Of a stretch of DNA of 64,000 nucleotides, positions 2,873 through 64,000 are shown in pieces. Position numbers and translations under genes: made by a program. The DNA comes from Cyclobacteriaceae bacterium (GTDB lineage: Bacteria; Bacteroidota; Bacteroidia; Cytophagales; Cyclobacteriaceae). The DNA lies in NCBI GenBank assembly GCA_965267535.1, contig OZ254082.1:4409904-4473903 (forward strand), read 5' to 3'. Below the pieces are notes generated by a model. That model made no database searches and was not told the origin of the DNA. It saw only the letters and a list, made by a program, of their open reading frames with translations. Each line of letters opens with the position of its first letter. The first letter of the stretch is position 1.

Positions 2873-5770
2873 TTATTGAGCTTGTACGTACGCTGAGGGC
2901 GATTTTCCAAATTTTTCTTTAAACGAGCGTGTAAAGTGTGCATGTGATTTAAAACCTATAGTATAGGCCACTTCACTTACGCTTCTCGGGTTTGCATCGA
3001 GGTACAATCGGGCCTTTTCGAGCCTGATATCTTTAATGAAATTAGACACAGTTTGTCCGGTAATTTCTTTCACTTTTCTAAACAGCTTGGCTCTGCTCAT
3101 ACCCAACTCTGTGCACATCGCTTCGATGGACAAATCGTCGTTGGTCATGTTGGATTCTACATAGGTAACTATGCGCTCAATCAGCGCATGGTCTTCGCTG
3201 TTTTTAGACAGTATAACAGACTCTCCCTCGGTATGATTATTAAATACTAAATCGGCTAAGGAAGGCTGCTCTCCCTGTCGGCGTGCCAGCTTTCTGTACA
3301 GAAAAAAAGCTAAAAGCAGAAGCGAAACTATTGTCAGCAGAATAGCTGCTTTGAATATCATAGTCTCCCATATCACAGGAGTAATCCGTATTGTCAGCGC
3401 AAGACCTTCTCTGTTCCACACGCCATCGTTGTTGGCTCCTTTTACCCTGAGTCGGTAAGTTCCCGAAGGAAGGTTTGCAAAAGAGGCCAACCCCTTATTG
3501 CCTACATACCGCCAGGTATCGTCGTACCCTTCTAGCATATAGGCATATTGATTTTTTTGTGACTTCACATAATTGAGTGCCGAAAACGAAACGTCTAACA
3601 GGGAGGCATCTTCTCTCGACAAAGTGATATCCGGTTCTTCACCTCCTGTTGGCTTCTGCTTCATCTCCATCGCCTTGCCATTTACTTTCACTCCTGTCAA
3701 TACTACCGGCGGCTTATTAGGATTTACATTCATCCTGTCGGGATTGAATACATTGAGCCCTTCCAGACCTCCCAGCAATACCTCGCCGGAGAGGTTATGG
3801 TAGATGGCGGTTTGTTCATTGAACACCTCACCCTGCAATCCATCGTTGGTATTGAATCTATTGACAATATAAATCGACTGATTCACATGGTCTACTTCAC
3901 ATTTGTACAGACCGTCCTGGCATGTAATCCAAAAAACGCCGTGCTTGTCTTCTACTATGTTGGTGATTTTTTTCAGCTCATCATTGGCATTAGTCACTCT
4001 GAATTTTACGGGCTTCCTGTTTACATCCAGCATAACCAATCCCTCGTCGAGTGTGTTGAGCCAAAGGTGCTGCTGACTATCTTCATGGATATAAGACACC
4101 CACCGTGGAGTTTCACCAGCAGCTACCGCTTCATACAAGCACGCCTCAAATCGCTGGCTTTTCTCATTGAAGTAATGCAAACCTGTCTCTGAAGCTACCC
4201 ATAGCTTGTACGTATAGTCCAGCATCATACTGTTCACTTTACCCAGCGGGATTTTTTCTTTTCGGAGGAAAGAAAAATCATAGTGCGTGGCTTTTTCGGA
4301 TTTTGGATCAAAAAAAGCAGCACCACCGTCTAGTCCGAGCCAAATTCCACCGGCCTTTTGCACCACTTTCCTTACCAAATCGGAAGGTATACTGTGTGGA
4401 TCCTGCGTGTGGTGACGGTAATATGTGAACTTGCCATTAGCTGAATTGTACTCAGCCAGTCCGTTTTCCAGCGTGGCTATCCACAATTTTTTATGTTTTG
4501 GATCGTACGACAGCCCATTGATGGTTTTGTCTTTAAAACCTGAAAAAGACTTTATTTTCTTGGTTTTGATGTCCATCAGACACAATCCTCCTCCATGCGT
4601 TCCCAGCCAGACATTTCCTTCAGTATTTACAGCCATTGCCGACACATTGTTCATGGGCAGAGAACTGCTACTGCCTTTGACATGGCGATATACCTCTATG
4701 GCTGCCGGATAATTATCCTGTATTTTCACTCCGCCGTTTGAAGTCGCAATCACTACTTCTCCGGTGCGCAGCTTATAATGTGCAAACACACTGGCCTTGC
4801 TGCCAAAGGGGTTGTAATTTCCCTGCGTATCGAAGCGAAAAAAATTATCTTCCCTGCCGTTGTATATGCTTATACCGCCGTTCATACCGCCTACCATGAG
4901 AGCGCCATTGTTGTCTTCGATAATCGAATAGACCGTATTGCTGGCCAGACTGGTAGATTTATTTTCGTTTCTGTACCATCTAAATGTTTTGGTTTTTTCT
5001 TCAAAGCGATTGAGTCCTCCTCGCTCGGCTCCCACCCATAGCTGGCCACTGTCGTCTTCGTATATGGCACTTATACTATTTCCACTTATGCAATTGTCTT
5101 TGTTTATATTTTTCTGAAACCGCTCCATTTGCCCTGTTTCCGGATCCAGCAGGTTGAGACCTGAAAACGCTGTACCTATCCAAAACCTGCCTTTACTATC
5201 TTCCAGTATGGTGGTTATTACATTTCCACTGAGGGTTTCCGGATTTTGAGGGTCATGGGTGAAATTGACAAAGTCATTTGACGATTCCCTATACAAACTC
5301 AGCCCACCCCAGGAACCTACCCACATTCTGTCTTTGCTGTCGCGGTATACTACCTCCACATTGGGGCTGGGAAGTGTATGCTGGTTTCCTTCTTCCGGAA
5401 AAAAGTGCTCAAAGTTGCCACCTACCATTCGATTCAAACCATACTTAGTTCCTACCCAGAGCTGTTGGTGTTTGTCTTCCGCTATACTGTTTATATAGTT
5501 GCTGCTAATGCTCCTTGTATTGTTTTCTATGGTTTGGTAGGTCTGGTAGGTATTGCCATCGTAGCGATTGAGTCCGTTGATAGTACCCAGCCACAAAAAA
5601 CCGGTTTGATCCTGAAAAATACAATTGACTGTATGGTGAGAAAGCCCCTCGAAAGGAAGTTGTATAAAATGAAGATTTTTATCCCGTTCTGCGGCAAAGG
5701 CATGGCTATACAGCAGTATGGCCATAGCCATACTTATCATGAAGCCATATTGTTTTACCAGCAGTCGCAT
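2873..5770 (-). CDS. Membrane-spanning sensor/regulator: Reg_prop beta-propeller repeats + Y_Y_Y + 1 TM + AraC HTH (HTCS-like but lacking kinase and receiver)
   Basis: Signal peptide; repeated DxxGxLWxGTxxGL units; YAYMLEGYDDTW...LPSGTYRLRVKGANNDGVWN; hydrophobic stretch near aa 805-830; C-terminal LGMSRAKLFRKVKEITG...VAYTIGFKSHAHFTRSFKEKFGKSPS. Confidence 0.9.
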   Translation of the reverse strand: MRLLVKQYGFMISMAMAILLYSHAFAAERDKNLHFIQLPFEGLSHHTVNCIFQDQTGFLWLGTINGLNRYDGNTYQTYQTIENNTRSISSNYINSIAEDKHQQLWVGTKYGLNRMVGGNFEHFFPEEGNQHTLPSPNVEVVYRDSKDRMWVGSWGGLSLYRESSNDFVNFTHDPQNPETLSGNVITTILEDSKGRFWIGTAFSGLNLLDPETGQMERFQKNINKDNCISGNSISAIYEDDSGQLWVGAERGGLNRFEEKTKTFRWYRNENKSTSLASNTVYSIIEDNNGALMVGGMNGGISIYNGREDNFFRFDTQGNYNPFGSKASVFAHYKLRTGEVVIATSNGGVKIQDNYPAAIEVYRHVKGSSSSLPMNNVSAMAVNTEGNVWLGTHGGGLCLMDIKTKKIKSFSGFKDKTINGLSYDPKHKKLWIATLENGLAEYNSANGKFTYYRHHTQDPHSIPSDLVRKVVQKAGGIWLGLDGGAAFFDPKSEKATHYDFSFLRKEKIPLGKVNSMMLDYTYKLWVASETGLHYFNEKSQRFEACLYEAVAAGETPRWVSYIHEDSQQHLWLNTLDEGLVMLDVNRKPVKFRVTNANDELKKITNIVEDKHGVFWITCQDGLYKCEVDHVNQSIYIVNRFNTNDGLQGEVFNEQTAIYHNLSGEVLLGGLEGLNVFNPDRMNVNPNKPPVVLTGVKVNGKAMEMKQKPTGGEEPDITLSREDASLLDVSFSALNYVKSQKNQYAYMLEGYDDTWRYVGNKGLASFANLPSGTYRLRVKGANNDGVWNREGLALTIRITPVIWETMIFKAAILLTIVSLLLLAFFLYRKLARRQGEQPSLADLVFNNHTEGESVILSKNSEDHALIERIVTYVESNMTNDDLSIEAMCTELGMSRAKLFRKVKEITGQTVSNFIKDIRLEKARLYLDANPRSVSEVAYTIGFKSHAHFTRSFKEKFGKSPSAYVQAQ

Positions 5771-5800
5771 TGATGAATCAGGGTGTGTTATCTCAACTTA

Positions 5801-5808
5801 CAAAAGTA
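5801..5808 (-). promoter_or_regulatory. Bacteroidota sigma70 -7 box (TACTTTTG) for the sensor-AraC gene
   Basis: Exact TAnnTTTG match about 30 nt upstream of the ATG at 5770. Confidence 0.6.
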
Positions 5809-5924
5809 CAGATTTTAAACCACTTTCAAATCCAATGCCAACCGCCAAACGAGTATATATCAATTGTGTGTCTTTTTAGAGCAATGGTAAATAAGGCATT
5901 TGCTCCTGTTTTACCGGAAACAAA

Positions 5925-62079: not shown

Positions 62080-63269
62080 TGTCGCTACTGCAACAAATAC
62101 AAGAGCTTTCCGCCAACCTTTTTGAGGAAACTCAAAAAAACAGAAGACACCTTCATGCTCACCCCGAACTTTCCTTCGAAGAGCACAATACCAGTCGGTT
62201 TATTCAAGATAAACTAACGGCCTGGGGGATACCCTTTGAAGCAGGAATAGCAGATACAGGCATTGTTGCCACTATACACGGCAAAAATCCTGACAAGAAA
62301 ACCATAGCACTACGAGGCGATATGGATGCTCTGCCCATCACAGAGCAAAATGACAAGCCCTACAAATCGACTAACGAAGGAGTAATGCATGCCTGTGGAC
62401 ACGATGTTCATACCTCTTCGCTCCTTTCAGCTACCTACATATTACACCAGTTAGCTGACAAGTTTGAAGGGTCTGTAAGATGTATTTTTCAGCCGGGAGA
62501 AGAAAAACTACCCGGAGGTGCTTCGCTCATGATCAAAGAAGGAGTACTGAAAACCCCCTCCCCCTCCGGTATATTTGGCCAGCATGTCATGCCACTGATC
62601 CCGGTAGGAAAGGTAGGATTTCGAAAAGGCATGTATATGGCCAGTGCAGACGAAATATACATGACCGTAAAGGGCAAAGGAGGCCATGCCGCTTTGCCGG
62701 AGCAAAATATCGACCCTATTCTTATCACATCCCACATCATAGTGGCCTTGCAGCAGGTTGTCAGTCGTATGGCCAGTCCCAAAATCCCCAGCGTATTGTC
62801 ATTTGGAAATGTGATCGCGAAAGGAGCCACCAATGTTATCCCGGACAAGGTAGAAGTAATGGGGACTTTCCGTACACTCAGTGAATCCTGGCGGGCTGAA
62901 GCTCACGAAAAAATGAAAAAACTAGCAGAAGGGCTGGCCCAATCCATGGGAGGTATATGTGATTTTGATATCAGAAAAGGTTATCCCTACCTGCAAAATG
63001 CCCCGGAGCTTACAGAACGAGCCATTCAAGCTGCAAAACAGTACCTCGGTGAGGACAATGTAGTAGAACTTGACATCTGGATGGGTGCTGAAGATTTTGC
63101 CTACTATTCTCAGGAAGTGGATGCCTGCTTTTACAGATTGGGCACTCGCAATGAAGAGCAAGGCATAACCTCTGCCGTACACACTCCTACATTCGACATA
63201 GACGAACGCGCCCTGTCCTTTAGCCCTGGGCTTATGAGCTGGATTGCCCTATGCGAACTACAATCCTAA
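62079..63269 (+). CDS. M20D family amidohydrolase
   Basis: RRHLHAHPELSFEE, RGDMDALP, HACGHD, QPGEE, AEDF, HTPTFDIDE. Confidence 0.93.
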   Translation: MSLLQQIQELSANLFEETQKNRRHLHAHPELSFEEHNTSRFIQDKLTAWGIPFEAGIADTGIVATIHGKNPDKKTIALRGDMDALPITEQNDKPYKSTNEGVMHACGHDVHTSSLLSATYILHQLADKFEGSVRCIFQPGEEKLPGGASLMIKEGVLKTPSPSGIFGQHVMPLIPVGKVGFRKGMYMASADEIYMTVKGKGGHAALPEQNIDPILITSHIIVALQQVVSRMASPKIPSVLSFGNVIAKGATNVIPDKVEVMGTFRTLSESWRAEAHEKMKKLAEGLAQSMGGICDFDIRKGYPYLQNAPELTERAIQAAKQYLGEDNVVELDIWMGAEDFAYYSQEVDACFYRLGTRNEEQGITSAVHTPTFDIDERALSFSPGLMSWIALCELQS

Positions 63270-63395
63270 ACGTTTACCTTTTTTAAACTACATGCTCTTT
63301 TCAGGGCTTTTTATTATTAAAAATTCAATTTCAGGAAGATTAGACAGCCGATCTGCTAAAATTTCGTCCTACCGTTAAAATAAATTGCTGATTTT

Positions 63396-63416
63396 TATTT
63401 AGATCAATTCTAAATA
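63396..63416. promoter_or_regulatory. Palindromic operator, Fur-box-like (TATTTAGA-N5-TCTAAATA)
   Basis: Perfect 8-5-8 inverted repeat directly upstream of the -7 box TATTTTTG (63419-63426). Confidence 0.7.
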
Positions 63417-63431
63417 GATATTTTTGTGCCC

Positions 63432-63572
63432 ATGAAGGCCAATGAGCATTACTACAACCCCATGAGTACATCCTGCGAGATGCAGGAAAACGATGGCTGT
63501 GTGTTCAAAAAATGTTGTAAAAAATACAAAAAGGCCAAAAAGAAAATGTGTAAAAGTTGCCCAAAGAGATAA
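63432..63572 (+). CDS. 46-aa Cys/Lys-rich peptide (below the ORF-track cutoff)
   Basis: MKANEHYYNPMSTSCEMQENDGCVFKKCCKKYKKAKKKMCKSCPKR; follows the promoter, ends 3 nt before the next ATG; alternative start 63462. Confidence 0.7.
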   Translation: MKANEHYYNPMSTSCEMQENDGCVFKKCCKKYKKAKKKMCKSCPKR

Positions 63573-63575
63573 AGG

Positions 63576-63944
63576 ATGTTTTTACGTAATTCGCCCATCA
63601 GCGCCAAAACATTAGAGCAGATATACAATACCAAACACTGCTCTGCACTTCAATGTGACTCTACCAACTCTTTCGAAATGAACCTGTTTGGAGACAAGGT
63701 TAGGATGAATATCTGTGCGCTTATCTCATTTAGAAAAAAACTACTCGACATAAACATCGAGACCTTGCTGCTCAGTGCAGACAGCCCCAGCATAGAGGTG
63801 ATAAACCTGGACTGTATAGACAAATTATTCGTATTCACAATCGAAGAAATTCTGGAATTGAGAGATTTGACTGAAGGCACATTTGCTATGCTTCAACTCA
63901 ACAGCATTATTCACCAAAACATTCACCGAAACATCCTGGTGTAA
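63576..63944 (+). CDS. Hypothetical protein (122 aa, Cys-containing)
   Basis: Continuous ORF in an apparent operon with the peptide; C-terminal ELRDLTEGTFAMLQLN. Confidence 0.75.
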   Translation: MFLRNSPISAKTLEQIYNTKHCSALQCDSTNSFEMNLFGDKVRMNICALISFRKKLLDINIETLLLSADSPSIEVINLDCIDKLFVFTIEEILELRDLTEGTFAMLQLNSIIHQNIHRNILV

Positions 63945-63968
63945 AGGCGTAAAACCGCCCTGTATTTG

Positions 63969-63989
63969 TATTTGGACTGGTTTTAAATT
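63969..63989. promoter_or_regulatory. Second, degenerate copy of the Fur-box-like operator
   Basis: TATTTGGA-CTGGT-TTTAAATT matches the first copy at 7/8 and 6/8 positions with the same 5-nt spacer. Confidence 0.55.
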
Positions 63990-64000
63990 AACATTTAATT

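Follow-up and report, generated by a model that had tools for sequence, protein, structure and literature searches.

A conserved 46-residue cysteine-rich peptide, preceded by a predicted Fur box and encoded beside a non-heme ferritin in Cyclobacteriaceae

Introduction

To our knowledge, the return of iron from non-heme bacterial ferritins is poorly understood, and the sole well-worked bacterial case is that of Bfd, which acts through the heme of bacterioferritin (Bfr). Bfd is a small protein (~50-65 aa) with four cysteines in the pattern C-x-C-x31-32-C-x2-C, held in a helix-turn-helix fold; it is encoded beside an iron-storage gene, repressed by Fur and induced at low iron, and it delivers the electrons for iron release. 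As far as we know, FhuF and Bfd are the two known Fur-repressed [2Fe-2S] proteins, and both take part in reductive iron release. In gamma-proteobacteria, the feoABC operon encodes the small Fe-S binding protein FeoC directly downstream of feoB; and the FbpA/B/C proteins of Bacillus subtilis are Fur-regulated basic proteins that work with the sRNA FsrA, in which we know of no conserved motif of four cysteines. The ferric-siderophore reductases (FSR), of which FhuF is one, are defined as a family by the motif C-C-x10-C-x2-C, which binds a [2Fe-2S] cluster; the four ligands of the cluster are located in a single loop, and the adjacent cysteine pair bind different iron atoms (bioRxiv 10.1101/2023.07.04.547673).

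Here we describe a gene for a 46-aa peptide with a cysteine motif of this kind, located near the end of a 64,000-nt stretch (positions 4,409,904-4,473,903) of a Cyclobacteriaceae genome (the whole stretch that was analysed, called the window below). The cluster motif, Fur control and a site beside an iron store are already known from FhuF and Bfd; what is new is a stand-alone form of ~50 aa that is linked to a non-heme ferritin and to a new 122-aa protein.

Results

A 46-aa gene that annotation has missed

The gene occupies positions 63,432-63,572 of the forward strand, from an ATG start to a TAA stop, and its translation is MKANEHYYNPMSTSCEMQENDGCVFKKCCKKYKKAKKKMCKSCPKR. The original prediction had singled it out as an unannotated peptide of 46 residues with six cysteines and a CC-x10-C-x2-C tail, and translation confirmed the position, strand, length and motif: the cysteines are residues 15, 23, 28, 29, 40, and 43, and the last four are spaced C28-C29-x10-C40-x2-C43, with three residues following before the C-terminus. 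The translation also bore out the predicted division of charge (four D/E and one K in the acidic N-terminal half; 11 K and one R in the basic C-terminal half) and the predicted lack of a signal peptide, as there is no hydrophobic N-terminal stretch in it. The net charge is about +9, and the tail is rich in lysine. An alternative in-frame GTG at 63,426 would lengthen the peptide by two residues, and this codon is not conserved in the relatives.

The exact 46-aa sequence was not found among ~15 billion predicted proteins, while the adjoining 122-aa protein was found there, so that the peptide had not been called as a gene; this is consistent with its having been described as unannotated. Homologues that have been called bear the name “hypothetical protein” (for example, WP_221409475.1 from Marinoscillum furvescens). 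The annotation error recurs: gene callers either omit the peptide, or stretch the 122-aa gene across it in a different frame. The complete genome (4.95 Mb) contains only one copy of the peptide gene.

The peptide family is conserved and under purifying selection

A search for conserved homologues had been proposed as a check on the original prediction, and such homologues were found. Six-frame searches identified the homologous open frame in four of four same-genus genomes (64-74% identity) and in several other genera. In a profile search of 401 Cytophagales genomes, 111 genomes from 57 of the 158 genera carried the family, nearly always as stop-free frames of 45-80 aa; other Bacteroidia families contain it too (a sample taken across the phylum had it in 18 of 401 genomes). 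Using HMMER against 1.84 billion cluster representatives, we retrieved 179 clusters at 50% identity (E <= 1e-3), with a median length of 52 aa.

The family is defined by its tail. Among 147 clusters examined, 144 show the C-terminal motif CC-x(8, 9 or 10)-C-x2-C (x8 in 47, x9 in 69, and x10 in 28), usually followed by a proline and two further residues. The family pattern can be written KKCC-K-K-Y-x(5-7)-C-x2-C-P, at the C-terminus, and the corresponding conserved tail of the window peptide is C-V-F-K-K-C-C-K-K-Y-K-K-x5-C-K-S-C-P-K-R. Residues K26, K27, C28, C29, C40, K41, C43, and P44 are invariant, and C23, K31, and K34 are nearly so; the N-terminal half varies among homologues and is acidic for the most part. 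As a family trait, the six cysteines of the original prediction therefore hold in part: C28, C29, C40, and C43 are invariant and C23 nearly invariant, but C15 is not conserved.

Codon comparison of 47 homologues showed 1592, 1267, and 7588 differences at the first, second, and third codon positions, respectively, and 6205 synonymous against 2120 non-synonymous codon differences, which indicates purifying selection on the amino-acid sequence of the peptide. Both TGT and TGC are used at every invariant cysteine, and all four codons at the invariant proline. The 46-aa reading frame is thus a genuine conserved gene, beyond chance, and its predicted product is a small cytoplasmic protein of a Bacteroidia family of ~50 aa. 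Scans of the peptide against Pfam and NCBIfam gave no family above threshold, a search of PDB sequences with the family profile gave only a chance match (a C-type lectin), and literature searches found no published description of the family; it is absent from Pfam and NCBIfam, and is unnamed in public annotation.

A Fur box precedes the peptide gene

The sequence TTTAGATCAATTCTAAA, a 17-bp palindrome at 63,398-63,414, is located 18 bp upstream of the peptide ATG, between presumed -33 and -7 elements, and differs from the 8-1-8 consensus TTTAGAATnATTCTAAA by two mismatches. Alignment of the upstream regions revealed the palindrome TTTAGAATnATTCTAAA right before the peptide start codon in nearly all loci. 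When boxes with <=3 mismatches were counted in ~220 nt upstream of the gene (four samples, with control windows taken from the same loci), 65% of 113 loci had one, as compared to 3.5% of the control windows, an enrichment of ~19-fold; stand-alone copies of the peptide gene in other families also have a Fur box. In the genome of the window, which encodes three Fur-family genes, the same box (<=2 mismatches) also precedes feoA and the genes for four TonB-dependent receptors, a DUF4856 lipoprotein, and an ECF sigma factor.

This sequence is identical to the one proposed as the Fur box of Riemerella anatipestifer (ATTTAGAATTATTCTAAAT); in EMSA, purified Fur bound promoter fragments that contain it (PMC5609570). 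The peptide gene therefore carries what is expected of the Bacteroidota Fur regulon, a ATTTAGAATTATTCTAAAT-type box within ~100 bp of the start codon. Judged from these sequences, it is probably repressed by Fur and induced on iron starvation, and with it the Fur regulon predicted for Bacteroidia would gain a core member.

The -7 promoter element of Bacteroidetes has the consensus TAnnTTTG. We read a probable element of this type, TATTTTTG, at 63,419-63,426 of the forward strand, and the TTTG recurs at the equivalent site upstream of the peptide in relatives. The element lies 5 nt before the ATG, which predicts a leaderless or near-leaderless mRNA. The same consensus is mentioned in the Riemerella study (PMC5609570). 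There is also a degenerate second box, TTTGGACTGGTTTTAAA (63,971-63,987, four mismatches), between the 122-aa gene and the ferritin gene. Loci of the same genus carry TTTGGATTGATTTTAAA at this site, and many other loci have a box with two to three mismatches between these two genes; in the genome of the window it is weak, and its function is presumed from the sequence.

Linkage to ferritin, the 122-aa gene, and feoB

Genes for SecA, a SPOR-domain protein, and an M20 amidohydrolase are located 5′ of the peptide gene on the same strand. A hairpin followed by a T-run (63,294-63,317, forward strand; stem-loop GCTCTTTTCAGGGC, then TTTTTATTAT), found by a consensus scan only, is terminator-like and would divide the M20 amidohydrolase gene from the transcription unit of the peptide. 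The gene for the 122-aa protein (63,576-63,944, forward strand) has its ATG 3 nt past the peptide stop (TAA AGG ATG). It is followed after 108 bp, on the same strand, by a gene for a non-heme ferritin of 172 aa, which lies just beyond the window (at the window-equivalent positions 64,053-64,571); the distance from the peptide gene to the ferritin gene downstream of it is 480 bp. An HMM search found no second ferritin in the genome. Further 3′ are a holin-like membrane protein, a 105-aa ORF, and PcrB, and the genes within 10 kb also include AraC and acyl-CoA dehydrogenase. An Rfam scan of positions 63,200-64,000 matched no RNA family.

All four same-genus genomes, and many genera whose flanking genes differ, share the order peptide, 122-aa gene, ferritin; the peptide and 122-aa genes abut or overlap in the relatives. 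One other family and Pedobacter have a permuted order (122-aa gene, ferritin, peptide), and a further family has ferritin followed by the peptide. In several genera feoB is directly upstream of the peptide gene; in the genome of the window, feoA/feoB are 4.2 Mb away. Elsewhere, the peptide gene stands alone, or beside a gene for a HemN-like radical SAM protein or a DUF4198 protein; and in one other family the locus adjoins genes for secreted cysteine-rich proteins.

We also approached the linkage from the side of the 122-aa protein. A scan of one genome per species identified 214 loci for the 122-aa family, which belong to Cytophagales and Sphingobacteriales (Pedobacter, Mucilaginibacter), and 80 of these loci were fetched. 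Ferritin directly follows the 122-aa gene in 80 of 80, and all Cytophagales loci among them have the peptide gene immediately upstream of the 122-aa gene, in contact or overlap with it. Nine Pedobacter loci contain a shorter peptide variant 3′ of ferritin (e.g., MSKK...KKKDCCEKYLRGKRCKNCPLA), with just four cysteines, and no peptide was found within 4 kb in the remaining Pedobacter and Mucilaginibacter loci that were fetched. Of the 401 Cytophagales genomes, both genes are present in 46, the peptide alone in 65, the 122-aa gene alone in 57, and neither in 233 (odds ratio 2.9, Fisher p = 2e-5, uncorrected for phylogeny); a recheck with a wider profile showed that the genomes with only the 122-aa gene truly lack the peptide. 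We therefore rejected an obligate pairing of the two: given the 65 peptide-only and 57 122-aa-only genomes, the peptide is an independent module, which is often but not obligatorily joined to the pair formed by the 122-aa gene and ferritin.

Comparison with FhuF and Bfd

The window peptide has the FSR cysteine motif with its exact x10 spacing, and the family as a whole has it loosely (x8 to x10, as against x10 in FSR). E. coli FhuF ends in ...LVRRTCCQRYRLPDVQQCGDCTLK and the window peptide in ...CVFKKCCKKYKKAKKKMCKSCPKR; aligned at their C-termini, they read ...RRTCCQRYRLPDVQQCGDCTLK-end (FhuF) and ...FKKCCKKYKKAKKKMCKSCPKR-end (peptide). Both thus have CC-x10-C-x2-C at the extreme C-terminus, basic residues ahead of the CC, a tyrosine at CC+3, and three residues past the last cysteine. 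Both have an iron-mobilization context and Fur control, which for the peptide is predicted. hhalign placed the two in this same register, but with little strength (P = 0.03, probability 1.6%), and the cysteine tail of the peptide may therefore have come to resemble the FhuF loop by convergence.

The differences are considerable. FhuF has ~260 aa and the peptide only 46, which lacks the entire N-terminal FhuF domain (~200 aa, with the siderophore pocket); the loop of the peptide is saturated with lysine; and the peptide gene adjoins ferritin, not siderophore uptake genes. Two models gave the sole family signals, both of them weak and local. The C-terminal end of TIGR03950 (siderophore ferric iron reductase) matched 19 of 20 peptide members, the best of them (E 7e-4) falling far short of the cut-off for the whole protein, and TIGR03951 (FhuF) matched the tail in 10 of 20. 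Pfam FhuF_C (PF11575) matched none of the 20 members at E <= 10; and a six-frame scan of 21 related genomes with this model did not find the peptide locus, nor any canonical FhuF_C protein. Since PF11575 does not score the peptide, we do not claim that it belongs to FhuF_C; with PF11575 unmatched and no solved structure related in sequence, we say that the peptide may work in the manner of the FhuF loop and do not count it among the family.

The peptide shares with Bfd a small size, four (conserved) cysteines, and a gene beside an iron store; Fur repression and induction at low iron are predicted for the peptide, and the delivery of electrons for iron release is the job that we propose for it. 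On the other hand, the cysteine pattern of Bfd is unlike CC-x10-C-x2-C, the peptide has no sequence similarity to Bfd and no Pfam match to PF04324 (BFD-like [2Fe-2S]), and an additional gene, that of the 122-aa protein, separates the peptide gene from ferritin. The ferritin partner is a non-heme one, which rules out an electron path through heme like that of Bfr.

Possible functions of the peptide

We tentatively favor, at somewhat under an even chance, a reading in which the peptide is a Fur-repressed mini Fe-S protein for reductive iron mobilization, functionally like Bfd or FhuF. Fur would repress the gene when iron is plentiful, and iron starvation would switch it on. The four invariant cysteines of the Lys-rich tail (CC-x8-10-C-x2-C-P) would then hold a metal center, for which a [2Fe-2S] cluster with the ligand arrangement of the C-terminal FhuF loop is the likeliest candidate, and the holo-peptide would act as a tiny electron carrier or reductase that frees iron from Fe(III) stores. 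In this genome, where the peptide gene is translationally coupled to the 122-aa gene and the sole ferritin gene comes next, the likely substrate would be the ferritin core; the basic tail of the peptide may dock on the acidic surface or the pores of ferritin. The original prediction had suggested an Fe-S- or Zn-binding mini-protein, and this part of it gains indirect support from the FhuF-like cysteine register, the Fur box, and the iron genes in the neighborhood (ferritin and feoB). Besides the unmatched FhuF_C model, the weak hhalign match, the varying CC-to-C spacing and the fusion model described below, several points were counted against this reading: an iron-requiring protein made under iron starvation is costly (though Bfd and FhuF are made in this way), a Lys-rich tail with four cysteines could equally bind Zn, and the peptide can do without the 122-aa protein and without a ferritin next to it, as its many copies that stand alone or beside a HemN-like gene show.

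The original prediction had also given the peptide a nucleic-acid-binding surface, which it may have. It could be a Zn-binding, zinc-knuckle-like basic protein that binds RNA or DNA in an iron-sparing response, in the manner of FbpA/B/C, which are likewise very small, basic and Fur-repressed (as predicted for the peptide), but show no sequence similarity to it. The Fur box, the net charge and the Lys-rich tail would suit such a protein, the four cysteines could form a Zn(Cys)4 site, and in many genomes the peptide is independent of both ferritin and the 122-aa gene. However, profile and PDB sequence searches related the peptide to no nucleic-acid-binding family, its C-terminal CC with a tyrosine at CC+3 suits the FhuF loop better than the known zinc knuckles, its linkage to ferritin and feoB suggests the handling of iron itself, and no Rfam RNA lies nearby; we consider this reading unlikely. 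We give somewhat less credence still to a FeoC-like regulatory subunit or chaperone that senses Fe or Fe-S and, instead of carrying electrons, binds Fe(II) or a labile cluster and modulates FeoB, the 122-aa protein or the loading of ferritin. The position directly 3′ of feoB in several genera recalls that of FeoC, as do the small size and the four cysteines, and the translational coupling to the 122-aa protein would fit a modulator of it; but the peptide has neither the winged-helix part of FeoC nor any similarity or family match to it, it has its own Fur box and promoter, feoA/feoB are unlinked to it in this genome, and a fusion model showed no contact with the 122-aa protein (a weak test; see below).

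The remaining readings are far less probable. The original prediction had called the peptide metallothionein-like, and the window copy, with six cysteines in 46 aa, taken together with the one family whose locus is beside secreted cysteine-rich proteins, could suggest a buffer that sequesters Fe, Zn, Cu or Cd. A metallothionein has a high content of conserved cysteines in repeated CxC, CC or CxxC clusters; here, only four to five are conserved (just four exist in the Pedobacter forms), no metallothionein model matched, and the predicted inducer is iron starvation rather than metal excess. The claim is thus unsupported, and we rejected this reading as quite improbable. Still harder to credit is the other role that had been suggested, that of a metal-sensing leader peptide (uORF) that controls the downstream 122-aa and ferritin genes. 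The frame is short, directly upstream of the next gene and tightly coupled to it; yet a leader would be expected at a fixed site and with little selection on its peptide outside the sensing codons, whereas purifying selection acts on this one, each codon for an invariant cysteine or proline varying synonymously, and its position varies: it occurs alone or far from the 122-aa gene, without any 122-aa gene in 65 of the 111 carrier genomes, and 3′ of ferritin in Pedobacter and one Cytophagales family. No attenuator or Rfam element was found either, and the leader role was rejected. We likewise discarded, as barely plausible, a precursor of a modified or secreted ribosomal peptide (SCIFF/ranthipeptide-like or antimicrobial). 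The length and the cysteine count resemble those of the “six cysteines in forty-five residues” (SCIFF) peptides, and some stand-alone copies of one family adjoin a radical SAM gene; however, that gene is HemN/HemW-like, no radical SAM gene lies within 10 kb in this genome that could be a dedicated maturase, the SCIFF cysteine pattern and taxon are different, and the NCBIfam SCIFF model was not matched. Nor does the peptide have a signal or a leader-core architecture, or a transporter or protease gene nearby, and the conserved part is the whole basic tail.

Returning to a mini Fe-S protein, a bolder proposal, which we regard as doubtful, is that the locus encodes a hitherto unrecognized iron-release system for a non-heme bacterial ferritin, in which a Fur-repressed, stand-alone FhuF-type [2Fe-2S] mini-ferredoxin of ~50 aa docks on ferritin and reduces the core under iron starvation, with, in many lineages, a 122-aa partner of new fold whose gene always adjoins that of ferritin. 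If true, this would be an Ftn counterpart of the Bfd-Bfr system, and no natural [2Fe-2S] protein smaller than the mini-ferredoxin would be known. Should the tail suffice to hold the cluster, it would be a minimal natural scaffold of interest for Fe-S chemistry. The Fur box, the FhuF-type motif and the linkage to ferritin and the 122-aa gene together make up a concrete three-gene system, which can be tested in culturable Bacteroidota.

The 122-aa partner protein

The 122-aa protein had no match in Pfam or NCBIfam. Its AlphaFold model, based on 54 homologues, is confident (pLDDT 84.8); in it, four strands are followed by two helices, a further two strands, and a long helix at the C-terminus. When the model was compared to the PDB with Foldseek, no match was better than E = 0.12, and therefore we assigned no fold (the top match is a PUR-alpha repeat, with a TM of ~0.4). 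The peptide and the 122-aa protein share a reading frame across TAA AGG, so that a fusion of the two is possible; we folded such an artificial fusion with AlphaFold, from an unpaired alignment in which the first residues of some homologues were misplaced, and in the resulting model the peptide part has a pLDDT below 50 and makes no contact with the 122-aa part. In the 122-aa family, D28, E74, G101, F103, M105, L106, L108, and N109 are invariant. The constant pairing of this family with ferritin is noteworthy independently of the peptide.

A conserved partner of ferritin

The 122-aa family, conserved beside ferritin, stands as a separate finding alongside the peptide. The ferritin gene lies directly after the 122-aa gene in 80 of 80 loci from Cytophagales and Sphingobacteriales (family loci L067-L146); in the source genome this stretch covers window 63576-63944 and continues beyond it (L002 1480-2475 in the coordinates of the local stretch). 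The family was found in 103 of 401 Cytophagales genomes, and 57 of these 103 are without the peptide. Neither Pfam nor NCBIfam gave a match for it; the AlphaFold model of the 122-aa protein is confident, and no neighbour of this model was found in the PDB. In some Cyclobacteriaceae-labelled genomes a second paralogue of the 122-aa gene is located downstream of ferritin (L079 5155-5508, L087 and L088 5190-5552, and L092 5147-5482), placing the ferritin gene between two copies.

Gene calls and the N-terminal half of the peptide

In relatives the 122-aa gene was called too far upstream, giving proteins of 141-156 aa (P0007, P0008, P0009, and P0011); the added N-terminus (...KNVVRSIKRPRRK...) comes from the other frame of the Lys-rich region of the peptide. 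The corresponding region is window 63493-63615, and the extended calls mask the peptide gene: this is a systematic annotation error. Only in the source genome do the peptide and the 122-aa ORF share one reading frame, with TAA AGG between them (window 63570-63578), whereas in relatives the two genes are in different frames and overlap, either as ATGA or by 16 nt; no indication of meaningful readthrough was seen.

The N-terminal half of the peptide homologues is otherwise variable but often carries a short patch resembling F/Y-N/S-P-F/M-D/E about 12-15 residues ahead of the first conserved Cys (YYNPM, residues 8-12, in the source-genome peptide), which may be a docking motif. At one ferritin-peptide locus from another Cytophagales family (L036), we also observed two adjoining small secreted Cys-rich proteins (5182-5826, minus strand). 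They are 96 and 99 aa long, carry signal peptides and contain HCCKKCDDKKC-like runs.

Possible control of ferritin and a putative Fur regulon

An asymmetric second box, typically TTAGACTnATTATAAA, recurs in the intergenic stretch that separates the 122-aa gene from ferritin (L070-L130); the source-genome copy, at window 63971-63987, is weak (4 mismatches). The right half of this box resembles a PerR-type half-site, so ferritin may be under separate or dual control.

Genome-wide matches to the Fur box in the source genome (G000:C1 265387, 330847, 1278898, 2237515, 3439067, 3510349, 3586795, 4182695, 2698082, and 4591208) outline a putative regulon that would include feoA, four TonB-dependent receptors, a DUF4856 lipoprotein, and an ECF sigma factor. 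A LuxR-type response regulator (4182720) and an uncharacterised 142-aa protein (2697584) likewise have near-perfect boxes upstream.
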